Both the position numbers and the translations under genes were made by a program. Source: Candidatus Gastranaerophilaceae bacterium (lineage in GTDB: Bacteria; Cyanobacteriota; Vampirovibrionia; Gastranaerophilales; Gastranaerophilaceae). Taken from it: a stretch of 64,000 bases of DNA. The stretch's first letter is position 1, and the number at the start of each line of letters is the position of its first letter. The DNA lies in contig JBJEGJ010000055.1 in NCBI GenBank assembly GCA_051874955.1, positions 127,094-191,093 of the forward strand, written 5' to 3'. The notes beneath the pieces are model-generated. The model saw only the letters and a program-made list of their open reading frames with translations. It ran no database searches and was not told the origin of the DNA. Below, piece after piece: positions 982 to 58,088 of the stretch.

Positions 982-1009
982 TAAAGATTTTGTCAACTCA
1001 AACCGATAA
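982..1009 (+). promoter_or_regulatory. Weaker sigma-28-like promoter candidate (TAAAGATT ... CCGATAA)
   Basis: TAAA lies at 982-985 and CCGATAA at 1003-1009. The gap is 17 nt versus 16 in the consensus, and A replaces the G of GCCGATAA. It sits 38 nt upstream of the ATG at 1047. Confidence 0.3.
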
Positions 1010-27410: not shown

Positions 27411-28427
27411 GTGAAAAAAGAATTTGAGCAATTTGGCATATTGACGGATGATATTTCTGATGAAAATGTTGATTTTAACAAGTTACAGGAGGCAGGGTCT
27501 GTCGAAGATGAAGATGGCGAGGATGTTTTAAAATCCGTTGCGGATCCTAAGGTTCAGGAAAGTTTGTTGTCAGTAAATTCGGATGACAGCGTTAAAATTT
27601 ATTTAAGACAAATCGGCAAAATCCCGTTATTGTCTGCGGAAGAAGAACTTGAGTTAGCAAAACGTATTCAAGATAATCGTGATGAATTTGCAAAAGATGT
27701 TTTGGTGAATGCTAATTTGCGTTTGGTTGTGAGTATTGCAAAAAAATACATTGGCAGAGGTTTATCGTTTTTGGATCTTATTCAAGAAGGCAATGTAGGG
27801 TTAATTAAAGCTGCGGGCAGATTTGATTACAAAAAAGGTTACAAGTTTTCGACTTATGCAACATGGTGGATTCAACAGTCGATAACTCGTGCAATTGCCG
27901 ATAAAGCAAGAATTATACGATTACCTATTCACATGATAGATTCTATCGGAAAAATCAGAAGGGCAACCATTGATTTAACAACAGAACTCGGTCATCCGCC
28001 GACAAAACAAGAAATAGCGTATCGTTTAGGATTTCCTGTATCTAAGCTGACGGCTATTATAAAATCTGCACAGTCGACGGTTAGTATGGATACTCCGGCA
28101 TCAGCAGATGAAGATGCTTCTAAAATTGCCGATTTTATTGTTGATAATTCGACAATAACTCCTGACGGCAAGGTTACTCACGATAATCTTTTAGAAGATA
28201 TAAGACAAATTCTTAACCAATTAAGCCAAAAAGAAAGAGATGTTTTAATTTTGCGTTATGGATTGGATAATAACGGAATGAAAAAAACTTTGGATGAAAT
28301 TGGTTCTCAATATGGTGTTTCGCGTGAAAGAATACGACAAATTGAAAACCGTGCGATTTCTAAGTTGAAAAAACTCTGTAAGGATGAAAAATTACACGAA
28401 GGTTTGATTAATTATTTTGGCGGATAG
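27411..28427 (+). CDS. rpoD: Primary-type sigma-70 factor (RpoD/SigA family)
   Basis: Region 1.2 (VKIYLRQIG), region 2 ([12 protein letters not shown]...[16 protein letters not shown]), region 3, and region 4 ([20 protein letters not shown]). GTG start. Confidence 0.93.
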
Positions 28428-28478: not shown

Positions 28479-28505
28479 TAAAGTTTTTTAATTTTATGCC
28501 GTATA
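28479..28505 (+). promoter_or_regulatory. Sigma-28 (FliA)-type promoter
   Basis: TAAAGTTT (28479-28486), an 11-nt spacer, then GCCGTATA (28498-28505). Established consensus: TAAAGTTT-N11-GCCGATAA. The architecture is the same as at 51798. Confidence 0.6.
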
Positions 28506-38185: not shown

Positions 38186-39205
38186 ATGAAAAATATAAAA
38201 ACCGAAATTACAAAAATACATTATACAAGAAATCCTGAGGGAATTTTGTTTGATTTCCTTAAGTTCTGTTCGTATTTTTACGGTTTTGGAAGCAGGGTTA
38301 AAAACTATTTGTACGATAAGAAAATATTAAAACCTAAAAAGGTAAATGCTTATGTAATTTCTGTCGGAAATATGACAACCGGCGGCGTTGGGAAAACTCC
38401 TGTTGTTTCCGAAATTGCAAAATATGTTATCGCGCAGGGTAAAAAAACAGCTATAGTGTCAAGAGGTTACGGCGGCAGACTTGCTAATAAGAATGTAAAC
38501 CTTATATCTGACGGGAAAACAATATATTTCGATGCGCTTTTATCAGGAGATGAACCGTATTGGTTGGCTGAAAATACTCCGGAATGTTACGTGTTTACTT
38601 GCAAAAACAGGTATTTGGCGGCAAAACAAGCTGTGGAAAAATATGGGGTTGAAGTTATTATTTTGGATGACGGATTTCAGCACAGAAAACTTTATCGGGA
38701 TATGGATATTGTATTAATGGATAGCGTTAAAGGTTTCGGGAACGAAAATTTATTGCCTGCGGGTCCGTTAAGAGAGGGTAATGAAGCGCTTGAACGTATT
38801 GATAAATTTGTTGTCGTCAGTAAAAGTTTCAAGCATGATATTGCAGAAAAAGTCGCAAAAATAATGCAAAAGCGTTTAAAAATACCTACGAGTATTTGTT
38901 ATACCGAACCGGATTATGTTTATAATATTAAGACAGGTCAAAGATTGATGGAAGGACTTGCGGTGACTGCGATGTGCGCAATTGGTCAACCTCAGCAATT
39001 TTATGATTTTCTGTCGGGATATCAAATTGCGAAAACAGTTACGTTTGATGATCATCATCAGTATGCGCCGATTGACCTTGTCGATATTACCGGAAGTATT
39101 ATTACAACCGAAAAAGATGCGGTTAAACTTGCAAGGTTTGATAGAGATAATATTTATGCCCTGCGTCTTAAAACGACAATTGATGTTGAAAATCTTTTAA
39201 TGTAA
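38186..39205 (+). CDS. lpxK: Tetraacyldisaccharide 4'-kinase
   Basis: P-loop VISVGNMTTGGVGKTP and the ILDDGFQH motif. Confidence 0.92.
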   Translation: MKNIKTEITKIHYTRNPEGILFDFLKFCSYFYGFGSRVKNYLYDKKILKPKKVNAYVISVGNMTTGGVGKTPVVSEIAKYVIAQGKKTAIVSRGYGGRLANKNVNLISDGKTIYFDALLSGDEPYWLAENTPECYVFTCKNRYLAAKQAVEKYGVEVIILDDGFQHRKLYRDMDIVLMDSVKGFGNENLLPAGPLREGNEALERIDKFVVVSKSFKHDIAEKVAKIMQKRLKIPTSICYTEPDYVYNIKTGQRLMEGLAVTAMCAIGQPQQFYDFLSGYQIAKTVTFDDHHQYAPIDLVDITGSIITTEKDAVKLARFDRDNIYALRLKTTIDVENLLM

Positions 39206-46953: not shown

Positions 46954-46982
46954 ATAAGCGGTAACATTATGTTACCGCTTAT
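46954..46982 (+). terminator. Strong hairpin after the TpsB gene / before bioD
   Basis: ATAAGCGGTAACA/TGTTACCGCTTAT 13-bp stem with loop TTA, followed by the T-rich tract TTATTT. Confidence 0.65.
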
Positions 46983-47003: not shown

Positions 47004-47690
47004 ATGGGATGTAAATCAGTTTTTATAACTGCAACGGGTACAGATGTAGGAAAGACTTACTTGTCTGCATTGTTGGTAAAAAAGATGCGTGACTTGGGGT
47101 ATAATTGCGGTTATTATAAACCGGCTTTGAGTGGAGCTATACGACAACAAGACGGAACACTTTTACCGGGTGATTGTGATTATGTTATTTCGACTTCCGG
47201 TTTGGGGGTTGAACCGTTATCTTGTGTCAGTTATTGTTTTGAGGAAGCGGTATCTCCTCACCTTGCGGCACATCGTCAGGGGGTGCAAATTGACAAGGAA
47301 ATCATAAAAAAAGATTATTCGGCTAAAGCTGAAATGTTCAATTATTTGGTTGTAGAGGGTGCGGGCGGAATTACTTGTCCATTTAATTTGGATAATGAGA
47401 AAATCTTGCTCCCTGATATTATTAAATCTTTGAATTTAGATATTTTGATTGTTGCAGATGCGGGATTAGGAACGATTAATTCCGTTATTTTGACTGTTGA
47501 ATATGCAAAATCAAATAATTTGGCGGTTAAGGGAATAGTGTTAAACAATTATGATGAAAACAATTTTATGCACGTTGATAATAAAATTCAAATTGAGCGT
47601 TTGACGGGTATAAAAGTTGTTGCAGAAGTTGGAAATGGTGATAAAGAATTGAATATTTCAACAACTGATTTGTTGGAAATATTTGGTTAG
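47004..47690 (+). CDS. bioD: Dethiobiotin synthetase
   Basis: FITATGTDVGKT P-loop and the VVEGAGG motif. Confidence 0.9.
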   Translation: MGCKSVFITATGTDVGKTYLSALLVKKMRDLGYNCGYYKPALSGAIRQQDGTLLPGDCDYVISTSGLGVEPLSCVSYCFEEAVSPHLAAHRQGVQIDKEIIKKDYSAKAEMFNYLVVEGAGGITCPFNLDNEKILLPDIIKSLNLDILIVADAGLGTINSVILTVEYAKSNNLAVKGIVLNNYDENNFMHVDNKIQIERLTGIKVVAEVGNGDKELNISTTDLLEIFG

Positions 47691-47713
47691 TTTCAGAGAA
47701 AGAAGGTATAATA

Positions 47714-49063
47714 ATGAATTGGCAGGAAGAAGATTTGAAATATATTTGGCATCCTTGTTCTCAGATGAAGGATTACGAAACTTTGCCGCCGATTGTGGTT
47801 GATTATGCGCAGGGCATAAATCTGTATGATATTGACGGAAATTGTTACAAAGATGTTGTATCTTCTTGGTGGTGTAATTTATTGGGGCATTGTAATCCGA
47901 GAATTAATGCGGCAATAAAAAAACAGTTGGATACGTTGGAACACGTTATTTTTGCTAATTTCACCCACAAAACTGCCATTACTCTTTGTCAAAAATTGAT
48001 AAAAGTTTTGCCAAAAGGTTTGTGTAAGTTTAATTTTGCAGATAACGGTTCGGCTGCGATTGAAATGTCTATGAAGATGAGTTTTCAATATCATCAGCAA
48101 ACCGGTAATACTCAAAAGAAAAGGTTTATGGCATTGACAGATGCTTATCATGGCGAAACGATAGGAGCTTTGTCTGTTGGTGCTTGTGATTTATATTCGC
48201 AGATTTATAAGCCGATTTTGATGGATGTTGTTCGGGTAGAGGGACCGGATTGTTTTAGATGTCCTTATGGCAAATGTCGTGATAATTGCGCTTGTGAGTG
48301 TTTTGAAAAAGCGGAAAAAACTTTTGCCCAATATGGTCAGGAAACGTGTGCGATGCTTGTTGAACCTTTGTTGCAAGGTTCTGCGGGTATGAAAATATAT
48401 CCGCCATTGTATTTAACGAAATTACGTGAGCTTTGTGACAAGTATAATGTGCATTTGATAGCGGATGAAATTGCTACAGGATACGGAAGGACGGGGAAAA
48501 TGTTTGCGTTTGACCATGCCGGAGTTTCACCCGATATTATGTGCCTTTCAAAAGGTTTGACAGGCGGTTATATGCCAATGTCTATTTGTGTTACAACTCA
48601 AGAAATTTATGACGCTTTTTATGATGATTATGGCAAAGGTAAGGCTTTTATGCACAGCCATACTTATGCGGGAAATCCGCTTGCTTGTTCTGCGGCAATA
48701 GAGGTTTTGAACATTTTGGAAGATGAACAAATTATTCCGAAAGCGGTAGAAAATGCCAAGTATTTTAATAAAATTATTAATGAAAAATTTGCAGATTTGC
48801 CTAATGTTGGGGAAATCCGCCATATCGGCTTGGTTAATGCTATTGAACTTGTTAAGGATAAAAATACGAAAGAGCCGTTTTCGTCGTCTTTGCGTTTAGG
48901 GTATCAAATTTATAAGCGCGCCTTAAAAAAAGGTGTACTGTTGCGCCCATTAGGAGATGTTATATATTTTAACCCGCCGTTGATTATTCAGCCTGACGAT
49001 ATGGATTTTGTAATGGATGTTGCAAAATCTTGTATGATTGAGGAATTAAATTCTATGTTGTAA
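47714..49063 (+). CDS. bioA: Adenosylmethionine-8-amino-7-oxononanoate aminotransferase
   Basis: HIWHPCSQM N-terminus, class III aminotransferase with DEIATGYGRTG and the PLP lysine context LSKGLTGGY. Confidence 0.93.
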   Translation: MNWQEEDLKYIWHPCSQMKDYETLPPIVVDYAQGINLYDIDGNCYKDVVSSWWCNLLGHCNPRINAAIKKQLDTLEHVIFANFTHKTAITLCQKLIKVLPKGLCKFNFADNGSAAIEMSMKMSFQYHQQTGNTQKKRFMALTDAYHGETIGALSVGACDLYSQIYKPILMDVVRVEGPDCFRCPYGKCRDNCACECFEKAEKTFAQYGQETCAMLVEPLLQGSAGMKIYPPLYLTKLRELCDKYNVHLIADEIATGYGRTGKMFAFDHAGVSPDIMCLSKGLTGGYMPMSICVTTQEIYDAFYDDYGKGKAFMHSHTYAGNPLACSAAIEVLNILEDEQIIPKAVENAKYFNKIINEKFADLPNVGEIRHIGLVNAIELVKDKNTKEPFSSSLRLGYQIYKRALKKGVLLRPLGDVIYFNPPLIIQPDDMDFVMDVAKSCMIEELNSML

Positions 49064-49846: not shown

Positions 49847-50635
49847 TTATGGGGCATAATTTCCTGTACAATATTTTTTGTTGCCTTTTACGCAACGTAA
49901 ATAATTTAAATTTTTATGTTTAATTACGTATCCTGCACAGGTTGTTCCGCTCCACCAACCGGCACTTCCTTCGTATTCGGGGTTACATCCTTTTTGTTTC
50001 TGCCAGCCAACATCTCCGTATGGAACAATTCCTCTATCAAGGATAGCGAATACAAATAAGTCTTCTCCCCAACGTGGTCTGTTTGTTTTTCCTGTTACAT
50101 TGACCATTATTGTGTGTGGTGTTGCCATTTCTGTGCCGTTGATATAACAACCTCCGTCCCCATTACAATCTCTTGTTTCTGATAAATATGTAGAAAAGCC
50201 ACCGGTGTTGTCAATGTTAATGCGGGTAGTATTTCCGATAATAATATTATATGGAACACTAACATTAGTATTTTTACCTTGTAAATCAAGATGCATTATA
50301 GATTTTTCACATTTGACCTTATCCCCATCGCATACTAAATAGCTTTTTATGTATGGCAGAAACTTCTCCATTATCATTTCTCTTGAAGTATTCTTATCTG
50401 TTGGTAAATTCCAACAGCTTATAGGTCCGTTATCTTCAATAGACATTTTGTATCCTTGACTTAGTATTGAATAAACTTCCAGTAATTTATTAACTATAAC
50501 TTTCTCTTTGTAAGTGTTGAGTAATGTAGGTATTGTTAGTGCTGCAACGATTCCAATTATTCCAATGGTAATAAGAACTTCTGCAAGCGTAAATCCCGTA
50601 TGATTTATTTTGCACTTGTTAAATATATTTATCAT
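49847..50635 (-). CDS. Prepilin-type N-terminal cleavage/methylation domain protein (type IV pilin/pseudopilin-like)
   Basis: Class III signal HTG|FTLAEVLITIGIIGIVAALTIPTL. The C-terminal domain is Cys-rich, with the motif VNVTGKTNRPRWGEDLFVFAI. Confidence 0.8.
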   Translation of the reverse strand: MINIFNKCKINHTGFTLAEVLITIGIIGIVAALTIPTLLNTYKEKVIVNKLLEVYSILSQGYKMSIEDNGPISCWNLPTDKNTSREMIMEKFLPYIKSYLVCDGDKVKCEKSIMHLDLQGKNTNVSVPYNIIIGNTTRINIDNTGGFSTYLSETRDCNGDGGCYINGTEMATPHTIMVNVTGKTNRPRWGEDLFVFAILDRGIVPYGDVGWQKQKGCNPEYEGSAGWWSGTTCAGYVIKHKNLNYLRCVKGNKKYCTGNYAP

Positions 50636-50687: not shown

Positions 50688-50900
50688 ATGGATAAGAGAT
50701 TGAAAATATTAGGTTTGAATATAAAATTTGCCAGAATAAAAAAGGGGTTGTCTCAGGAACAGCTTGCTGAGAAGGTAGATTTATCCAGAACGGCAATAAG
50801 TTTTATAGAAACAGCTCGACAAAATCCAACTATTCTTAAAGTAATTGATATTGCTAAAGTTTTAAATGTTGATATAAATGATTTAGTAAGGGATGTTTAG
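50688..50900 (+). CDS. XRE-family helix-turn-helix transcriptional regulator (70 aa)
   Basis: The HTH_3 signature is LSQEQLAEKVDLSRTAISFIETARQNP. Confidence 0.85.
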   Translation: MDKRLKILGLNIKFARIKKGLSQEQLAEKVDLSRTAISFIETARQNPTILKVIDIAKVLNVDINDLVRDV

Positions 50901-51029: not shown

Positions 51030-51725
51030 CCTCACCCTAACCCTCTCCTATCTTAGGAGAGGGAAGAATAATAGTTAAGTAGTGTAGACTTTAGTCTACC
51101 GATACTAAACCAAAAGATCCTGAAACGAGTTCAGGATGACAAACGCGTTATATATTTGAGTATTTTATACCATGATACCCTGAATAAGTCGAGCAGAGGA
51201 TGAAAGCGTTAGCGTATCCGTTTAATGCGAGGCGCGTTTCAACATCTCCAAACACATGTGTCACCCTGAACTTGTTTCAGGGTCTAGCCTATTGGTAAAA
51301 TCTTGCTAGGTTTAAAGATCCTGAAATAAATTCAGGATGACAAACGCGTTATATATTTGTGTATTTCATACCATGATACCCTGAATAAGTCGAGCAGAGT
51401 ACAAAAAGTTAAACACATGTGTCACCCTGAACTTGTTTCAGGGTCTAGCCGTTGATGTTTTTTGCCATGTTTTTCAAGATCCTGAACAAAACAAAATCTA
51501 CGCAGTCAAGTACGGTGGGCAGAAATGAAATAATGCCCACCTATTTATGCAAATAATTTAAATTTGTTGGCACTATTGGTGTATTTTGCTAGGTTTAAAG
51601 ATCCTGAAATAAATTCAGGATGACAAACGCGTTTTATATTTGTTATAGCCGAGCAAAGCAGGGTAGGCTTTAGTCTACCGCAACAAAACCAAAAGCTTCG
51701 GAAACAAGTTCAGGATGACATGTGG
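51030..51725. repeat. Second mosaic array of the same repeat modules plus other small hairpin repeats
   Basis: Module starts lie at 51116, 51317, 51478 and 51600. Also present are CCTCTCC..GGAGAGG (51044-51063) and GGTAGACTTTAGTCTACC-type hairpins (51084-51101, 51663-51680). Confidence 0.9.
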
Positions 51726-51797
51726 GCAAAACTACTTTGTCTTCTCTCATATCTCAAAAAAAATGTAACGAAATGTTACAATATATGCTTGTTTTTC

Positions 51798-51824
51798 TAA
51801 AGTTTTACCGAAAAATGCCGTAAT
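51798..51824 (+). promoter_or_regulatory. Sigma-28 (FliA)-type promoter
   Basis: TAAAGTTT (51798-51805), an 11-nt spacer, then GCCGTAAT (51817-51824), 48 nt upstream of ATG 51872. Confidence 0.65.
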
Positions 51825-51871
51825 CATGACTAAGCAAAGAATGACTATATGTCGAAAGGATTACGAAAAAA

Positions 51872-53920
51872 ATGGGATTGGCAGCTTCACAAGCTAGATT
51901 TTTATGTATAACGGCAAGAAAAGCTGATTGTGAATACAAATCAACTGAACTGGCTCAGCAAAAGCTTGAGATTACAAATCAGTTGTCAACAATTTCTAAT
52001 GAATACGCCAATGCCATGAATGCAACAAAATTGGTTTGGTCAAATGATGCTGTTGATAGGGATTATGGCTTGACATACAGTCTTATGATGACACCTTCTG
52101 CAATAAATGATTACAATCCTTATATGTTGACATCATCATCAGGCGCAATTATTTTAAATAGTGAATATGCAAACGCTGCGCGTGCTGCCGGTATCTCAAA
52201 AGCAGGCGGTGCAGGTTCGCAAGCTTCACGTGATAAGTTTATTCAAGCATTAGTTCCGGGCGGTATCGTTACGCAAGAAACTGCGGATAATATTACCTCT
52301 AATGATTATCGTGTATCTATTAAAAACAACGAGATAAATATTGTAGAGGGAACTGAAGCTAATGGCGCTATTATGTGGAATCCTGCAGCAGGTATGGGGG
52401 CAGATCCGCTTAATAAATCCATTGTTGATGCAATGAATTTAGTAGACTTGGCTACCAGCGAAAATATCGGTCAACAATTAGTTGACTGGGGACAATTATT
52501 TGTCGGTGAAGGTCAGATTACAACCATTGAGTACGATAGAAATCTTGAGAATTTACAAGATTTGTATAAAGATTCAATTAATAAAAAAATATCAAATGAA
52601 ATAATTTCACAATTGCAAAATGATAAAGCAAGTTTTGAATCAACGCTGGCAAATCCTGAAAAACCTACTACTGAGGAGCAGAAAAAGCTCGATGAGTTTG
52701 ATAAATTGATTTCTAATGCAAAAACTATTTTAGCAGGCAAGGTTTCTGATGACGGATACTTGCTTGATTCTTCAGGAAATAAGACCTCAACTACCTTAGA
52801 TGCTGCCTACACAGCTATATCTGATCAGTTAAAAAATGACTATGAATCCTATAAAACGAAATATACGGATGAGAATGGTAAGCCAAATAATAAGCAAGTC
52901 GGTCTTACAGATAAATTTAATACTAAAGATAATTCTTTAAAAACAGCTACATATTCAATGGTGCAAAATGGCAGTATTAACCATTATTCGTCTGAAATTG
53001 AAGAATTAACAATTGGTGATATTTTAACATCAAATATTGTTTTAATGGCGAACAGTAATATTAGTATGACTGATTTCCAAGAAGATGTTAAAAAATTATT
53101 TGATTCTATTGTAGAGGTTTTAGGGTATTCAACAACCAAAAATTTAAGCGGTACAGGTTTGAATATTGATGATGCCTCAAGACAGGCTTTAGAGTTTGCT
53201 TATAAGATGACATTGCCGTTGTTGAAAAATGATAAATGTCAAACAGGTTCAAGAAAATCCGACAAATCCATGACAGAAAACAGCGCATATATGAATGCTG
53301 AAAAATATAACGGTATTGTTTCTGATGAAGATGAGGGCAAGGGTTATAAAGGTGTCAGCTTGACCAACTTGCTTGCTACATTTTTAACTTATTATGATAA
53401 CGGTTTGAATGGTATAAATTCTAATTACGTTATTGGTGCAACAATTGATACGTCAGATTATGTAACAGACGACTACGGTTATTATTATATGGCACAAAAT
53501 GATTCTGATGCGGTTGTTTCAATGGCAGCAAGAAGTGCCGATTTCTTTGACCAGTTATACAACAATATCTGTGAACACGGTTGGAGAGAAGATGCACAGG
53601 TTGATGATTATGAATATCTTGAAAGCGCGATAAAAGACGGTCGTTACTCAATGAGTTCATTAAATCAAGACGGATATTTTTATCAAACAAGATACAATGA
53701 AACAGGCTATATTATAGAAGAATCAGATACCGATGCAATTGCCCGAGCTGAAGCAGAATTTACTTCTAAAAAGGCAGAGCTGACTTATAAAGAAGATTCA
53801 ATTGATATTAAAACAAAACAACTTGATGCTGAAATATCTTCATTATCAACGGAATATGATACAGTAAAACAGTTGATTTCAAACAGTATTTCAAAAACCT
53901 TCGCATTATTCCAAAACTAA
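51872..53920 (+). CDS. Conserved-termini / variable-core protein (682 aa), MGLAASQAR family; putative filament subunit
   Basis: The first 9 aa are identical to the 36571 product and the C-terminal 32 aa are about 45% identical. The ~570-aa core is N/S/T/D/Y-rich. There is no signal peptide or TM segment. Confidence 0.75.
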   Translation: MGLAASQARFLCITARKADCEYKSTELAQQKLEITNQLSTISNEYANAMNATKLVWSNDAVDRDYGLTYSLMMTPSAINDYNPYMLTSSSGAIILNSEYANAARAAGISKAGGAGSQASRDKFIQALVPGGIVTQETADNITSNDYRVSIKNNEINIVEGTEANGAIMWNPAAGMGADPLNKSIVDAMNLVDLATSENIGQQLVDWGQLFVGEGQITTIEYDRNLENLQDLYKDSINKKISNEIISQLQNDKASFESTLANPEKPTTEEQKKLDEFDKLISNAKTILAGKVSDDGYLLDSSGNKTSTTLDAAYTAISDQLKNDYESYKTKYTDENGKPNNKQVGLTDKFNTKDNSLKTATYSMVQNGSINHYSSEIEELTIGDILTSNIVLMANSNISMTDFQEDVKKLFDSIVEVLGYSTTKNLSGTGLNIDDASRQALEFAYKMTLPLLKNDKCQTGSRKSDKSMTENSAYMNAEKYNGIVSDEDEGKGYKGVSLTNLLATFLTYYDNGLNGINSNYVIGATIDTSDYVTDDYGYYYMAQNDSDAVVSMAARSADFFDQLYNNICEHGWREDAQVDDYEYLESAIKDGRYSMSSLNQDGYFYQTRYNETGYIIEESDTDAIARAEAEFTSKKAELTYKEDSIDIKTKQLDAEISSLSTEYDTVKQLISNSISKTFALFQN

Positions 53921-53924
53921 TTGA

Positions 53925-54446
53925 TTAGTTATTTTGCAGGTATTTGTCGGTAATATTCAATATTGCGGTTTTTAAGGTGTCATAATCTGAATTGTTTTCG
54001 ACTATGTAATCCCAGTCTGTAATGTTATCAAGTCCGGTTTCTGTTATGTCGTCTTCTCCGACAAGTTGTCCTCGTTGCATACGGGTTTGTCTTGTTGCTT
54101 CAATTCTTATTGTTGTTGCGTTGGCTTTTTTAAAGATTTCATATTCATGCGGAACTCGGACATCTGTTATTATGATATTTCCCTCTTGTTCAAGAATTTT
54201 ATTTAACCAGTAATCCGCATCCTGAGCTCGTCCCCAATTGCCAAGTTCAATCAAACCTGCACGATATTTTGCCTTGTTTTGTTCAATTACCTCGTAGGTT
54301 AAATTGTGTTGTTTTCCGTATGTTAATTTTATAATATCGCCAATCGCGCAACGCCTGAAATTTGTTAGTTTTTCAAGCATAATCTTTGCTGCTGTATCCT
54401 TGCCGGAATACTGTTTTCCCGAGAATATAATAATTTTATCAACCAT
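53925..54446 (-). CDS. P-loop kinase, dNMP-kinase / animal-type phosphomevalonate-kinase-like fold
   Basis: The Walker A IIFSGKQYSGKDT resembles the FSGKRKSGKD-type P-loop. 173 aa. Confidence 0.5.
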   Translation of the reverse strand: MVDKIIIFSGKQYSGKDTAAKIMLEKLTNFRRCAIGDIIKLTYGKQHNLTYEVIEQNKAKYRAGLIELGNWGRAQDADYWLNKILEQEGNIIITDVRVPHEYEIFKKANATTIRIEATRQTRMQRGQLVGEDDITETGLDNITDWDYIVENNSDYDTLKTAILNITDKYLQNN

Positions 54447-55115: not shown

Positions 55116-56477
55116 TTAATTATTCAAACTGTGAATAGGTGCGGGTACTCTGCCGCCTCGTTGTACAAAGTTTGAAGATGAAAGTTTGTTTACCGGCATG
55201 ATAGGAGCTTCTCCTAATAACCCTCCGTACGAGATTTTATCTCCGACAGTTTTTCCGTATGCCGGTATTATTCTTACTGCCGTTGTTTTTTTGTTAATCA
55301 TTCCTATTGCCATTTCATCCGCAATAATTCCCGCAATTGTATCTGTCGGAGTATCACCAGGAATTGCAATCATATCCAAGCCGACAGAACAAACTGAGGT
55401 CATAGCTTCAAGTTTATCAAACGTCAGGCAGCCTTTTGTTGCGGCATCAATCATTCCGGCATCTTCAGAAACAGGAATAAAAGCTCCTGACAGCCCGCCA
55501 ACGTGTGAACTTGCCATTATTCCGCCTTTTTTGACCGCATCATTTAGCATTGCAAGAGCTGCGGTTGTTCCGTGTGCGCCGGCATGTTCAAGACCCATTG
55601 CCTGAAATATTCCCGCAACACTATCCCCTTCAGCAGGAGTCGGAGCAAGAGATAAGTCTATAACGCCGAATGGAATATCAAGTTTTTTGGCGAGTTTTCT
55701 TCCTACGAGTTCTCCGGTTGAAGTTATTTTATAAGCAATTTCTTTAATTTTGTTTGCAAGTTCACTCATATCGGCATTTTTATCCATAGCTTCAACTGCC
55801 GCTCTCACGGCACCCGGACCCGAAACACCGACATTTAAAGCACATTCCGGCTCTCCAATGCCGCAAAATGCACCTGCCATAAACGGATTATCTCCCGGAA
55901 CATTGCAAAATACAACAAGTTTCGCAGCCCCAATCCCGTCTTTGTCTGCTGTTAATTCGGCTGCTTTTTTAATGATTTCGGACATTTTTAAAACGGCGTC
56001 CATATTGATTCCTGCCTTTGAAGATGCAAGATTAATTGATGAACATACTCGTTCTGTTGTCGCAAGAGCCTCAGGAATACTCTCTATTAAAAGTTTATCT
56101 CCTTTTGTGCAACCCTTTTCGACAAGTGCGGAAAATCCTCCGACAAAATTTACACCAACTTCTTTTGCTGCTTTGTCTAATGTTTGTGCAATTTTTACAT
56201 AATCGGGATTTTTGCATGCTTCGCCAATCAATGAAATAGGGGTGACTGCAATTCTTTTATTTATTATTGGAATTGAGTATTCGTCTGCTAATTCGTCTGC
56301 GTATTCTACCAAATTTTTGGCATATTTTTTAATTTTGTTATAAATTTTTTCGCAAACAGTATCTACATCTTCAGCAATACAATCTCTAAGGCTCAATGCC
56401 AATGTAACTGTTCTTATATCAAGATTGTACAGTTTAATCATGTTTATTGTTTCAATTATATTATTTTCATCTATCAT
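55116..56477 (-). CDS. UPF0210 (DUF711) family protein
   Basis: About 450 aa. N-terminus [19 protein letters not shown]... and a Gly/Ala-rich conserved body typical of UPF0210. ATG 56477 overlaps the upstream stop (ATGA). Confidence 0.8.
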
Positions 56478-57169
56478 CTTTTTAATCCCAATGCGGTTGA
56501 TACATTCCAATCTTTGACTTTAAGTTTTAATTCAACTCTGCGGCTTTTGTCGTAATCTTCAATTCCTTTTTCGTTAAGAACAGGCTCATTGTAGCTTTTA
56601 CCTTCTACTACAACAATTTTTCTGAATTGATCGGCATAAGCCTTGTTGTAATTTGTTTTGAAGATATATTCAGCTACAGCATTAGCTCTTTTTAAACTCA
56701 AGTCCATATTCTTTAAAAACTGTTCATCTTTAGAAGTGACACCTGCAAACATTTGTGAATCCGTGTGTCCTTGTATATAAATATATTGAATTTGTTCTGC
56801 CAGTTCTTTATCGGCAAAAATGGAATTTATATATATAGGTGCAAGTTTGTCTAAAAGTTTTTTCCCTTTAGGTGACAGTTCCCAGCTTGATAATTCAAAA
56901 AGTTCCACATCGGAAATTTTCAAATCACCTGTCATTTTATCAATATCAACATCAATATTTTCTTTTTTTAATTCGTTACTGATTTTTTCGGAAACTTCCA
57001 TTTGAACTTTTTGCTGTTGGATATTTTCCTGAGTGAAACCTGTCATAGCAAGTACAAACAGAGTTATAAATATTATGGCAAGACCGAGTAAAAGGTCTGC
57101 CATTGTAACCCAGAAAATATTTCCGTTGTCTTCGTCGTTATTATGTTTTCCTCTGAATTTTATTGCCAT
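56474..57169 (-). CDS. MotB-like stator subunit (TM with conserved Asp + OmpA-like peptidoglycan-binding domain)
   Basis: [16 protein letters not shown] matches the MotB W.VTYAD.MT.L plug/TM motif. The C-terminal OmpA-like domain has GHTDS ... SLKRANAV ... SRRVEL. Confidence 0.75.
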
Positions 57170-57179
57170 TTAAGTCCTT

Positions 57180-58088
57180 TTAGAATAATTCATCCACAAC
57201 ATCCGTTGCTTTTCTGTCTTTTAGTGATTCTTTTAATTGTTTGTTCATTTGGTTAAGTCCGAAAATTAAATTTTCCAAATACGGCACGAGGTTTGTTGCC
57301 ATTGCTGCATTGAATTGTGCTTTAAATTGGTTTGGAATTTCTGTTATCATGTTAGCCGAAGAATTGTTTTGGAGTTTTGATTCTCTGAGCAATTCATACA
57401 GGAATTTTTCGGCTGAAATTGTTGCAAATAAATTTCCCATAATCTCTTGAATTTGAACAAGCGGAGCTTTGCACATTCTGTTATAAAGAGATCTTTCTAT
57501 TAGCAGGTATATTAGAGATGAACCTACTGCAACAACCGAAACCAATGCCGCTGTTTGCATACTTGTCATAAAATTTGAAACAGATGCGATGGTTTTTTCT
57601 TGAGTTGAAAAATCAATTTTACCAAATGCAATTGCAATGTTCAAAAACGTAAATAACGGACCAAAACCTGTCAAAACCGTCGGGATTGTTTGTATCATCT
57701 TAAAGTTGAATTTTGAGGTAACCAAAGATTCTTCATTAAAATAATACAGCGGATCTGACGTTGTTTGAACATTTTGTACGGTTGAAGAAATATCTTGATA
57801 TTTGTAATCTTTTCCTTCGGTTTTAAGCGCTACAGATTCTGAAAACACAAGGGTATTTTTAAATTCTGTCCACATTGCAGAAACATAAGGGTTTTGATTC
57901 ATCCAACTGTCAATTTCCTTAAACCGAAAATTTAAGTCATTACGTTTAAAATGCTGCATAAATCCAATAAGGGTTTGCAGGTTTTTGCCGGTTTGATAGT
58001 ATTTTGTATAACAGTATATTGTTGATAATATGAAAACGCAAATTACGATTAAAATCGGTAAGTCAGCCAAATATTTTAAAAAATCCAT
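57180..58088 (-). CDS. MotA/TolQ/ExbB-family proton-channel protein
   Basis: TolQ/ExbB-like topology (TM1, a ~110-aa loop, then TM2-TM3) with LTGFGPLFTFLNIAIAF and AALVSVVAVGSSLIYLLIE. It lies 10 nt upstream of the MotB-like gene. Confidence 0.65.
   Translation of the reverse strand: MDFLKYLADLPILIVICVFILSTIYCYTKYYQTGKNLQTLIGFMQHFKRNDLNFRFKEIDSWMNQNPYVSAMWTEFKNTLVFSESVALKTEGKDYKYQDISSTVQNVQTTSDPLYYFNEESLVTSKFNFKMIQTIPTVLTGFGPLFTFLNIAIAFGKIDFSTQEKTIASVSNFMTSMQTAALVSVVAVGSSLIYLLIERSLYNRMCKAPLVQIQEIMGNLFATISAEKFLYELLRESKLQNNSSANMITEIPNQFKAQFNAAMATNLVPYLENLIFGLNQMNKQLKESLKDRKATDVVDELF

Follow-up and report, generated by a model that had tools for sequence, protein, structure and literature searches.

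The 64,000-nt stretch of contig JBJEGJ010000055.1 from a Candidatus Gastranaerophilaceae bacterium considered here (positions 127,094 to 191,093 of the forward strand; below, the window, with coordinates counted from its first letter) contains an open reading frame (ORF) for a 682-aa protein, preceded by a site that resembles promoters of the flagellar sigma factor sigma-28. The question is whether this site is a working promoter, which sigma factor would read it, and which other genes would be read with it. Gastranaerophilales are uncultured gut relatives of cyanobacteria in which a flagellar export machine is retained but flagellin is mostly missing, and the promoter offers a sequence handle on what their flagellar remnant controls: according to published analyses, only some of them (about a quarter of the genomes) have full flagellar gene sets, and the rest keep a subset, Zag-type genomes being without annotated FliC, FliD, FlgE, FlgK, FlgL, FlgH, FlgI, and MotAB. 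Our conclusion is that the site is likely to function in its Gastranaerophilales (Melainabacteria) genome as a promoter of the sigma-28 (FliA/SigD/WhiG) type, and to belong to a small regulon tied to flagellar type III export genes.

The site lies on the plus strand and in context reads ...tttttcTAAAGTTTtaccgaaaaatGCCGTAATcatgactaagc... Its −35 element, TCTAAAGTTT, occupies positions 51796–51805, with the core octamer TAAAGTTT at 51798–51805; with the bases ahead of the octamer included, the −35 is TCTAAAG. The 11-nt spacer taccgaaaaat (51806–51816) consists of a variable part (51806–51811) and a conserved AAAAT (51812–51816), and is followed by the −10 element GCCGTAAT (51817–51824) with GCCG at 51817–51820; the majority form in the lineage is GCCGTAA(N), and the canonical form is GCCGATAA. 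The original prediction, made from the window alone, had read TAAAGTTT-N11-GCCGTAAT at exactly these positions. Its description of the site as near-consensus holds for the −35, GCCG, and the spacing, all of which are exact, but not for the end of the −10, where three of the last four bases are not those of GCCGATAA, one of the three being at the place of the flipped −11 A. The distance of 48 nt that it gave to the ATG is off by one at most, as 47 bases separate the −10 octamer from the ATG at 51872. A ribosome-binding site, AAAGGA (51855–51860), is situated inside the conserved block GTCGAAAGGATTAC (51851–51864; majority fraction 0.82). The target ORF occupies 51872–53920 and appears to be monocistronic, because the next gene (53925–54446, minus strand) converges on it from downstream.

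A scan for the 682-aa protein, with one genome per species, yielded 58 loci (designated below by L and a number), 55 of them with usable upstream sequence. Apart from a few that are obviously mis-binned, the loci with informative titles come from metagenome-assembled genomes of Candidatus Gastranaerophilales, Melainabacteria, or "Cyanobacteria bacterium", sampled in guts and rumen. The orthologous proteins are 37–93% identical, that of L002 being the closest at 93%. The arrangement TAAAG(T/A)TT-N11/12-GCCG(T/A) is kept in all 55 loci, 33–48 nt before the ATG. In the −35 octamer, the T, A, A, and G at positions 1, 3, 4, and 5 are invariant, the counts being T55, A51, A55, A55, G55, T41/A14, T52, and T53; in the −10 octamer they are G51, C54, C55, G55, T40/A15, A42, A33, and A40, with an A at position 5 or 6 in every site. 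The spacer as parsed is 11 nt in 30 sites and 12 nt in 22, the other three having been given a false 13 nt; inspection by eye of the four sites that the script had parsed wrongly gave a 12-nt spacer for three of them. There is a weak trend for the TA forms of the −10 to go with the shorter spacer (Fisher p = 0.07). In the MAFFT alignment, the mean majority fraction is 0.98 for GCCG, 0.90 for the −35, and 0.88 for AAAAT, and falls to 0.43 in the 5′ part of the spacer and to 0.46–0.54 in the flanks. The canonical −10 GCCGATAA is seen in L023 and L024, and GCCGATAT in L028; L046, L049, L051, and L053 have a TCAAG variant of the −35, as do FliA promoters of Pseudomonas and Vibrio. Since both blocks and their spacing are kept in all loci at protein identities of only 37–93%, whereas the sequence has drifted in the flanks and in the 5′ part of the spacer, this phylogenetic footprint strongly supports a promoter function.

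Further sites of the same type are found both in the window and in its relatives. A weight matrix was built from the 55 ortholog sites, and two sites in the window score at least 25 bits, compared to 0.005 expected per 64 kb on both strands under a first-order Markov null. The second of these, TAAAGTTT-N11-GCCGTATA (28479–28505, plus strand, 25.8 bits), is outside the training set; it directly follows the terminator of an RpoD-like sigma gene (27411–28427) and stands 121 nt before an ORF for a 90-aa protein. The operon behind it (28627–29238, plus strand) comprises this 90-aa gene (28627–28899) and a gene for a 110-aa coiled-coil protein (28906–29238). The second promoter is kept ahead of the 90-aa orthologues in L067–L071 (Zag_111 and four other genomes) with scores of 18.1–25.8 bits, although the neighbor gene upstream is a different one. 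The 90-aa gene is real and highly conserved: the 120 best matches listed are 78–99% identical to it and nearly all exactly 90 aa long. Its product is a predicted helical hairpin for which Pfam, NCBIfam, a PDB sequence search, and an AlphaFold model compared by Foldseek gave no significant match. The leader of this gene, about 120 nt (28506–28626 and its equivalents in L067–L071), contains the strongly conserved blocks TTAAGAAATGTTAC, ATCAATTT, and ATGTTTTTAAATATATGTAGGTCTAAAGTGTAAGGA, one of which resembles half of the GTAAC palindrome described below; an RNA structure was considered here and rejected (RNAalifold, −2.9 kcal/mol, essentially without covariation), and an Rfam search of the window gave zero matches.

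A candidate third promoter, TCTAAAGATT-N12-ACCGATAA (982–1009, plus strand, 17 bits), is separated by 37 nt from the start codon of an ORF for 69 aa (1047–1256) and has TGTAAC/TGTAAT repeats directly upstream. About 0.24 sites with such scores are expected per window, and its assignment to the same type is suggestive only. A match at 38667–38694 (minus strand, 17.3 bits), antisense inside lpxK, was taken as chance. In relatives, promoters of the same type, reading TAAAGATT-N12-GCCGATAT and TAAAGTTT-N12-ACCGTAAA, precede conserved ORFs of 51 and 57 aa (L027 15693–15913, L040 15694–15913, and L045 4447–4664; L027 4357–4588 and L040 3773–4004), each with GTTAAT/TGTAAC repeats upstream. A further 1.0 Mb of related DNA contains only two matches of at least 19 bits, one of them ahead of a gene for a 251-aa protein (MGLSASQARLL...), a member of the 682-aa family, about 5 kb from the genes for flhB and a sigma factor described below. 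Hence the late-flagellar-type regulon in which the 682-aa gene had been placed stands in a modified form: the same promoter type occurs ahead of other lineage-specific genes, which in relatives adjoin flagellar type III genes. In the sequences covered, which offered no canonical late gene for comparison, the targets found (the 682-aa family, the 90/110-aa operon, and the 51-, 57-, and 69-aa ORFs) are all uncharacterised, and none is a recognized motility, filament, or chemotaxis gene.

In the open complex of Pseudomonas aeruginosa sigma-28, the fliC promoter reads (−36)TCTAAAG(−30) and (−15)GCCGATAA(−8), GC forms the extended −10, and the A at −11 is flipped out on melting (PMC12784957); the latter is common to sigma-28 and sigma-70 open complexes. 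The −35 in the window, TCTAAAG, is identical to that of the fliC promoter, and so is the 14-nt gap from TAAAG to GCCG. Similar to FliA promoters of E. coli, Salmonella, and Pseudomonas (consensus TAAAGTTT-N11-GCCGATAA), the site has the GC of the extended −10 followed by CG, and TCAAG is seen as a −35 variant in some orthologs; similar to class 3/IV FliA promoters, it lies tens of nucleotides before the start codon, and several of the genes concerned are linked to the flagellar type III apparatus. It differs from FliA promoters in the lineage majority −10, GCCGTAA(N), where T takes the place of the flipped −11 A; in the conserved AAAAT ahead of GCCG; in a fixed GTWAC-N5-GTWAC element 17 nt upstream; and in its targets, those found here being not flagellin, hook-associated, motor, or chemotaxis genes.

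The reading also calls for a sigma factor of the sigma-28 family, on the presence of which the original prediction depended. That prediction had seen no fliA/sigD homologue in the window, and our searches of the window agree. In relatives, a factor for which FliA/WhiG is the best family is present, so that the absence that would have refuted the prediction does not hold for the lineage: L023 and L024 (in the latter at 2247–2927) encode, 18 nt after flhB, a 226-aa protein of the sigma-70 family (91% identical between the two) whose best NCBIfam match is TIGR02479 FliA_WhiG (E 3e-22, full-length, 79 bits). It scores 66 bits with the general sigma-70/ECF (extracytoplasmic function) superfamily model, above the cut-off of 42.9, and more weakly with the SigB/F/G models, and it aligns end to end with E. 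coli FliA at 22% identity. A metagenome collection contains 117 relatives of this protein, of which 80, 65–98% identical, were kept; flhB is directly upstream of the sigma gene in 74 of these 80 loci. The divergent factor was revealed by Pfam/NCBIfam annotation of the flhB neighborhood in L024, having been missed by tblastn with E. coli FliA or with the RpoD-like sigma factor of the window, and we found no mention of fliA or sigma factors in the Melainabacteria literature and its supplements. A gene for a 574-aa histidine kinase directly follows the flhB–sigma pair in L024 (2976–4700), and this kinase could regulate the sigma factor; no FlgM-like anti-sigma gene was identified.

The position of this sigma gene finds a parallel in Bacillus subtilis, whose long fla/che operon carries the SigD gene at its end, behind flhB, flhA, and flhF. 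Early flagellar export genes and the sigma gene are co-transcribed in both cases, the distance from flhB being 18 nt in the lineage studied here; in contrast to B. subtilis, the operon apparently consists of flhB and the sigma gene only, followed in L024 by the kinase gene. In this way, the activity of late promoters is linked to the expression of the export apparatus.

The assignment to sigma-28, proposed in the original prediction, is thus supported because the −35 (TCTAAAG) and the spacing are those of the solved complex, some orthologs have the canonical GCCGATAA or GCCGATAT, four have TCAAG, and the flhB-linked sigma factor of the lineage has FliA/WhiG as its best match. Several observations weigh against it. 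GCCG is followed by T, with A one base later, both in the window and in 40 of the 55 orthologs, and directly by A in the other 15; among the sigma-28 features, the window matches the TAAAG −35, the GCCG extended −10, and the 11-nt spacing, and leaves the A after GCCG unmatched. The RpoD-like factor is the only sigma factor in the 64-kb window. The 79 bits of the 226-aa factor are well below the curated FliA/WhiG cut-off of 189.6, and Pfam detects only region 4 in it. No recognized late flagellar gene is among the promoter targets found, and, as the matrix was built from the ortholog sites, only the sites outside that set count as independent.

The T after GCCG and the low score of the sigma factor also bear on the possibility that the site is a functional promoter read by some other alternative sigma factor, either of the ECF type, with AAG-N16-CGT in place of AAC-N16-CGT, or similar to the cyanobacterial group-3 factor SigF. 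In ECF promoters, the −35 has AAC as its core and the −10 contains CGT, with about 16 nt between the two. Indeed, 73% of the orthologs have CGT and not the CGA typical of the sigma-28 −10, and the flhB-linked factor, being under the FliA/WhiG cut-off, passes the general sigma-70/ECF model. However, the ECF core is lacking, as CGT in 40 sites is accompanied by AAG in the −35 of all 55 and never by AAC, and the −35 is instead exactly TCTAAAG/TAAAGTTT; the GC before CG is invariant, as in the sigma-28 extended −10, and the canonical GCCGATAA is present in some orthologs; over its full length, the factor scores highest with FliA/WhiG, and its gene is paired with flhB. As to the SigF-like variant, the Synechocystis SigF promoter is not known to resemble the site in sequence. 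Overall, another sigma factor appears rather improbable. Less probable still is that the conserved blocks are sites of transcription factors, with a weak promoter nearby read by the RpoD-like holoenzyme. A palindrome of the kind bound by such factors does lie directly upstream (51764–51780), and the −10 of the second site overlaps a perfect TATAAT (28502–28507); but no sigma-70-like −35/−10 pair (TTGACA-N16-18-TATAAT, with A2 and T6 in the −10) is present in the 470 nt upstream (51400–51871), no TAnnnT hexamer is conserved after GCCG across the orthologs, and two short blocks at a fixed 11–12 nt that match a known sigma consensus exactly would not be expected of factor sites.

Finally, AT-rich intergenic DNA might contain a site of this appearance by chance. 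There are 18 copies of TAAAGTTT in the window, the G+C content of which is 31–40%; GCCG, which had been called rare in AT-rich spacers, is moderately so, with 18 occurrences on the plus strand in about 9.4 kb of non-coding sequence; and patterns with up to three mismatches appear at near-chance frequency. The strength of the site is in the combination and its conservation, neither word alone, and the exact pattern of 16 specified bases occurs once in the window. Given the conservation in all 55 orthologous loci, the recurrence at other genes, and the expectation of 0.005 per window, a chance origin has a negligible probability and is effectively refuted by the conservation data.

Under the preferred sigma-28 reading, RNA polymerase with the divergent factor of about 226 aa, similar to FliA/WhiG, would bind TCTAAAGTTT via region 4 and GCCGTAAT via regions 2–3, the −35 and −10 being separated exactly as in the solved sigma-28 complexes. 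Transcription is predicted, from the register with the P. aeruginosa fliC promoter, to start at 51832 (within about 2 nt, plus strand), some 7–8 nt after the −10 octamer and within the conserved block CATGAYTAAGC, and would give a monocistronic mRNA for the 682-aa protein with a 5′ untranslated region (UTR) of about 40 nt. A regulator probably binds GTAAC-N5-GTTAC, 17 nt upstream, and would modulate the promoter. The same promoter type would drive at least the 90/110-aa operon in the window and small lineage-specific genes in relatives, a small regulon parallel to the late class of the flagellar hierarchy, although with a cargo other than flagellin. Of this mechanism, the start site, the recognition by the flhB-linked factor, and the part played by the upstream element are inferred from conservation, register, and genomic association. 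The promoter is a lineage-specific variant of the sigma-28 type, characterized by the GCCGTAA −10, the fixed upstream element, the divergent sigma factor, and non-flagellin cargo. As a natural variant of the −10 that departs from the canonical −11 A, GCCGTAA bears on promoter melting by group-3 sigma factors.

The upstream element TGTAACGAAATGTTACA (51764–51780) consists of two GTWAC pentamers 10 bp apart that form an inverted repeat, and ends 17 nt before the −35. TGTAAC-N5-GTTACA is common to all orthologs of the 682-aa gene, with a mean majority fraction of 0.84 compared to 0.46–0.54 in the flanks. The exact form occurs once in the window, and GTWAC-N5-GTWAC twice, with 0.14 expected; degenerate versions are seen upstream of other sites of the same promoter type. 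The element is probably the binding site of an additional regulator common to these genes. A 17-bp perfect palindrome, GGTAACATTATGTTACC (46960–46976), with the same GTAAC-N5-GTTAC core, is located between a ShlB-like gene and bioD/bioA (47004–49063), and may be the operator of the biotin operon or a site for a similar regulator. One candidate binder of the upstream palindrome is a 70-aa helix-turn-helix (HTH) protein of the XRE type (50688–50900), whose gene is divergent from one for a type IV pilin-like protein that has a methylation motif at the N terminus (49847–50635, minus strand); Zag_111 (L061) has this gene pair as well, near its hydrogenase genes. The 970 nt that separate the HTH gene from the promoter are filled for the most part with nested short repeats containing hairpins, in two to three copies each (51077–51733; for instance GATCCTGAA...TTCAGGATGACAAACGCGTT and CACCCTGAACTTGTTTCAGGGT), which look like miniature mobile elements or repetitive extragenic palindromic (REP)-like ones. 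The similarity of the window to L002, its closest relative, starts only at the GTAAC palindrome.

Two further modes of control were considered for the leader and rejected. CsrA/FliW-type control, as on the B. subtilis hag leader, is not suggested, as only about half of the orthologs retain the first GGA of the 5′ UTR; csrA was not found in the window or in about 1 Mb of related loci. A hairpin GACATG/CATGTC is unlikely to form in the RNA, since its 5′ arm is upstream of the predicted start.

What does the promoter transcribe? About 700 homologues were found for the 682-aa protein; they stem from metagenomes or metagenome-assembled genomes (MAGs) and are without exception unnamed or "hypothetical". 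The family comprises 2564 representatives at 50% identity; many of the matches cover only the first ~150 or the last ~200 residues. The protein has no Pfam, NCBIfam, or PDB-sequence match. Its AlphaFold model, of moderate confidence (pLDDT 68), shows an N-terminal helix (residues 2–52), a C-terminal helix (619–681), and a mixed middle, and Foldseek gave no significant fold match for it (best E-value 2). The middle region varies in length between relatives, and the terminal helices are conserved across the family. The Flagellin_N/C, Flg_bb_rod, and FlgK models find no match among 22 family members at E up to 5. A 350-aa paralogue (35519–36571, minus strand) shares the N terminus (MGLAASQAR...) and the C terminus with the 682-aa protein, the latter at 94% hhalign probability, and only the termini are shared; with no matrix match upstream, it is without this promoter type. 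The C terminus of the 110-aa protein aligns with those of the 682- and 350-aa proteins in the same register, at an hhalign probability of only 6–7%. The family is similar to flagellins and other axial proteins in its long terminal helices, the variable length of the middle, the paralogues that share termini only, and the sigma-28-type promoter; as no sequence, PDB, or fold match was found, the likeness is one of architecture.

The family is also close to flagellar genes in relatives. There, the 682-aa gene lies less than 10 kb from fliO-P-Q-R and less than 10 kb from flhB, Zag_111 having a fliN-O-P-Q-R cluster on the same contig as the 682-aa ortholog, and the 350-aa paralogue, its 272-aa partner, and the 90/110-aa operon adjoin fliE-fliF-(340 aa)-fliH-flhA. 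Tentatively, the MGLAASQAR-type family (members of about 250, 350, and 600–800 aa, and possibly the 110-aa protein) may be exported cargo of the reduced flagellar type III apparatus that "non-flagellated" gut Gastranaerophilales retain, either axial or filament subunits or secreted effectors, although we consider this doubtful. If true, the sigma-28-type promoter would be the surviving late switch of a flagellar hierarchy, turned to a novel function in secretion or as a surface filament; an earlier class, under a promoter of another kind, would comprise the fliE operon and the 350-aa paralogue; and there would be an unrecognized flagellum-derived organelle in a widespread lineage of the human and animal gut.

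Factors of the sigma-28 family are known to serve bacteria without flagella: sigma-28 of Chlamydia transcribes hctB, and WhiG of Streptomyces transcribes sporulation genes; Chlamydia also retains a few flagellar-type export paralogues. The present case is similar in that a sigma-28-type factor and promoter are retained with non-flagellin targets. In contrast to Chlamydia, Gastranaerophilales retain a larger flagellar core (rod proteins, FliE, FliF, FliH, FliI, FliN-R, FlhA, and FlhB), and in those members with complete flagellar sets the regulon may still be flagellar; MEL.B1, MEL.B2, and their relatives are reportedly flagellated, whereas Zag_111 and MEL.A1 are reduced. The sites described here mark out a regulon that is both compact and conserved, comprising the 682-aa family, the 90/110-aa operon, and several small ORFs, and link it to a FliA/WhiG-like sigma factor co-transcribed with flhB, so that the question of what the reduced flagellar apparatus of Melainabacteria exports or builds becomes directly testable.

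Several observations were made on the surrounding genes. In L069–L072, the gene order is MlaD, 350 aa, 272 aa, 90 aa, 110 aa, about 200 aa (opposite strand), a purH-like gene, a deaminase, (amylase, acyltransferase), and fliE-F-H-flhA. In the window (29244–36571), the 350/271-aa pair has the opposite orientation and lies apart from the 90/110-aa pair, and a fliE operon after them is lacking, which indicates a local rearrangement. A motif (G)TTGATTTTT(G), with a TATAAT-like hexamer (GTATAAT, TATAGA, or TATAAG) 25–45 nt later, precedes both the 350-aa paralogue and the fliE-fliF-fliH-flhA operon (L069 3752, L071 7743, and L072 5481; upstream of fliE in L069–L071; about 36690 in the window, minus strand), and TTGATTTTT may mark an early promoter class distinct from the sigma-28-type one. 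The gene pair at 56474–58088 (minus strand) resembles a stator of the MotA/MotB type, and encodes a 302-aa membrane protein with sub-threshold matches to ZorA and a 231-aa OmpA-domain protein with sub-threshold matches to ZorB and MotB; there are no other Zorya or flagellar motor genes near it.

Among the orthologous loci, L059 and L060 (1–9900), which belong to one species, have a prophage-like block (capsid, portal, terminase, holin, and amidase) whose end is only some 100 nt ahead of the 682-aa orthologue; beside it, the promoter module has survived as TAAAGTTT-N12-TCCGTAAA. The contigs of L021, L030, L034, L054, and L057, which carry the Gastranaerophilales-specific 682-aa gene, were deposited under the names of Muribaculaceae, Bacteroidaceae, Clostridium, Methanomethylophilaceae, and Acutalibacteraceae MAGs, and these names are probably due to binning errors.

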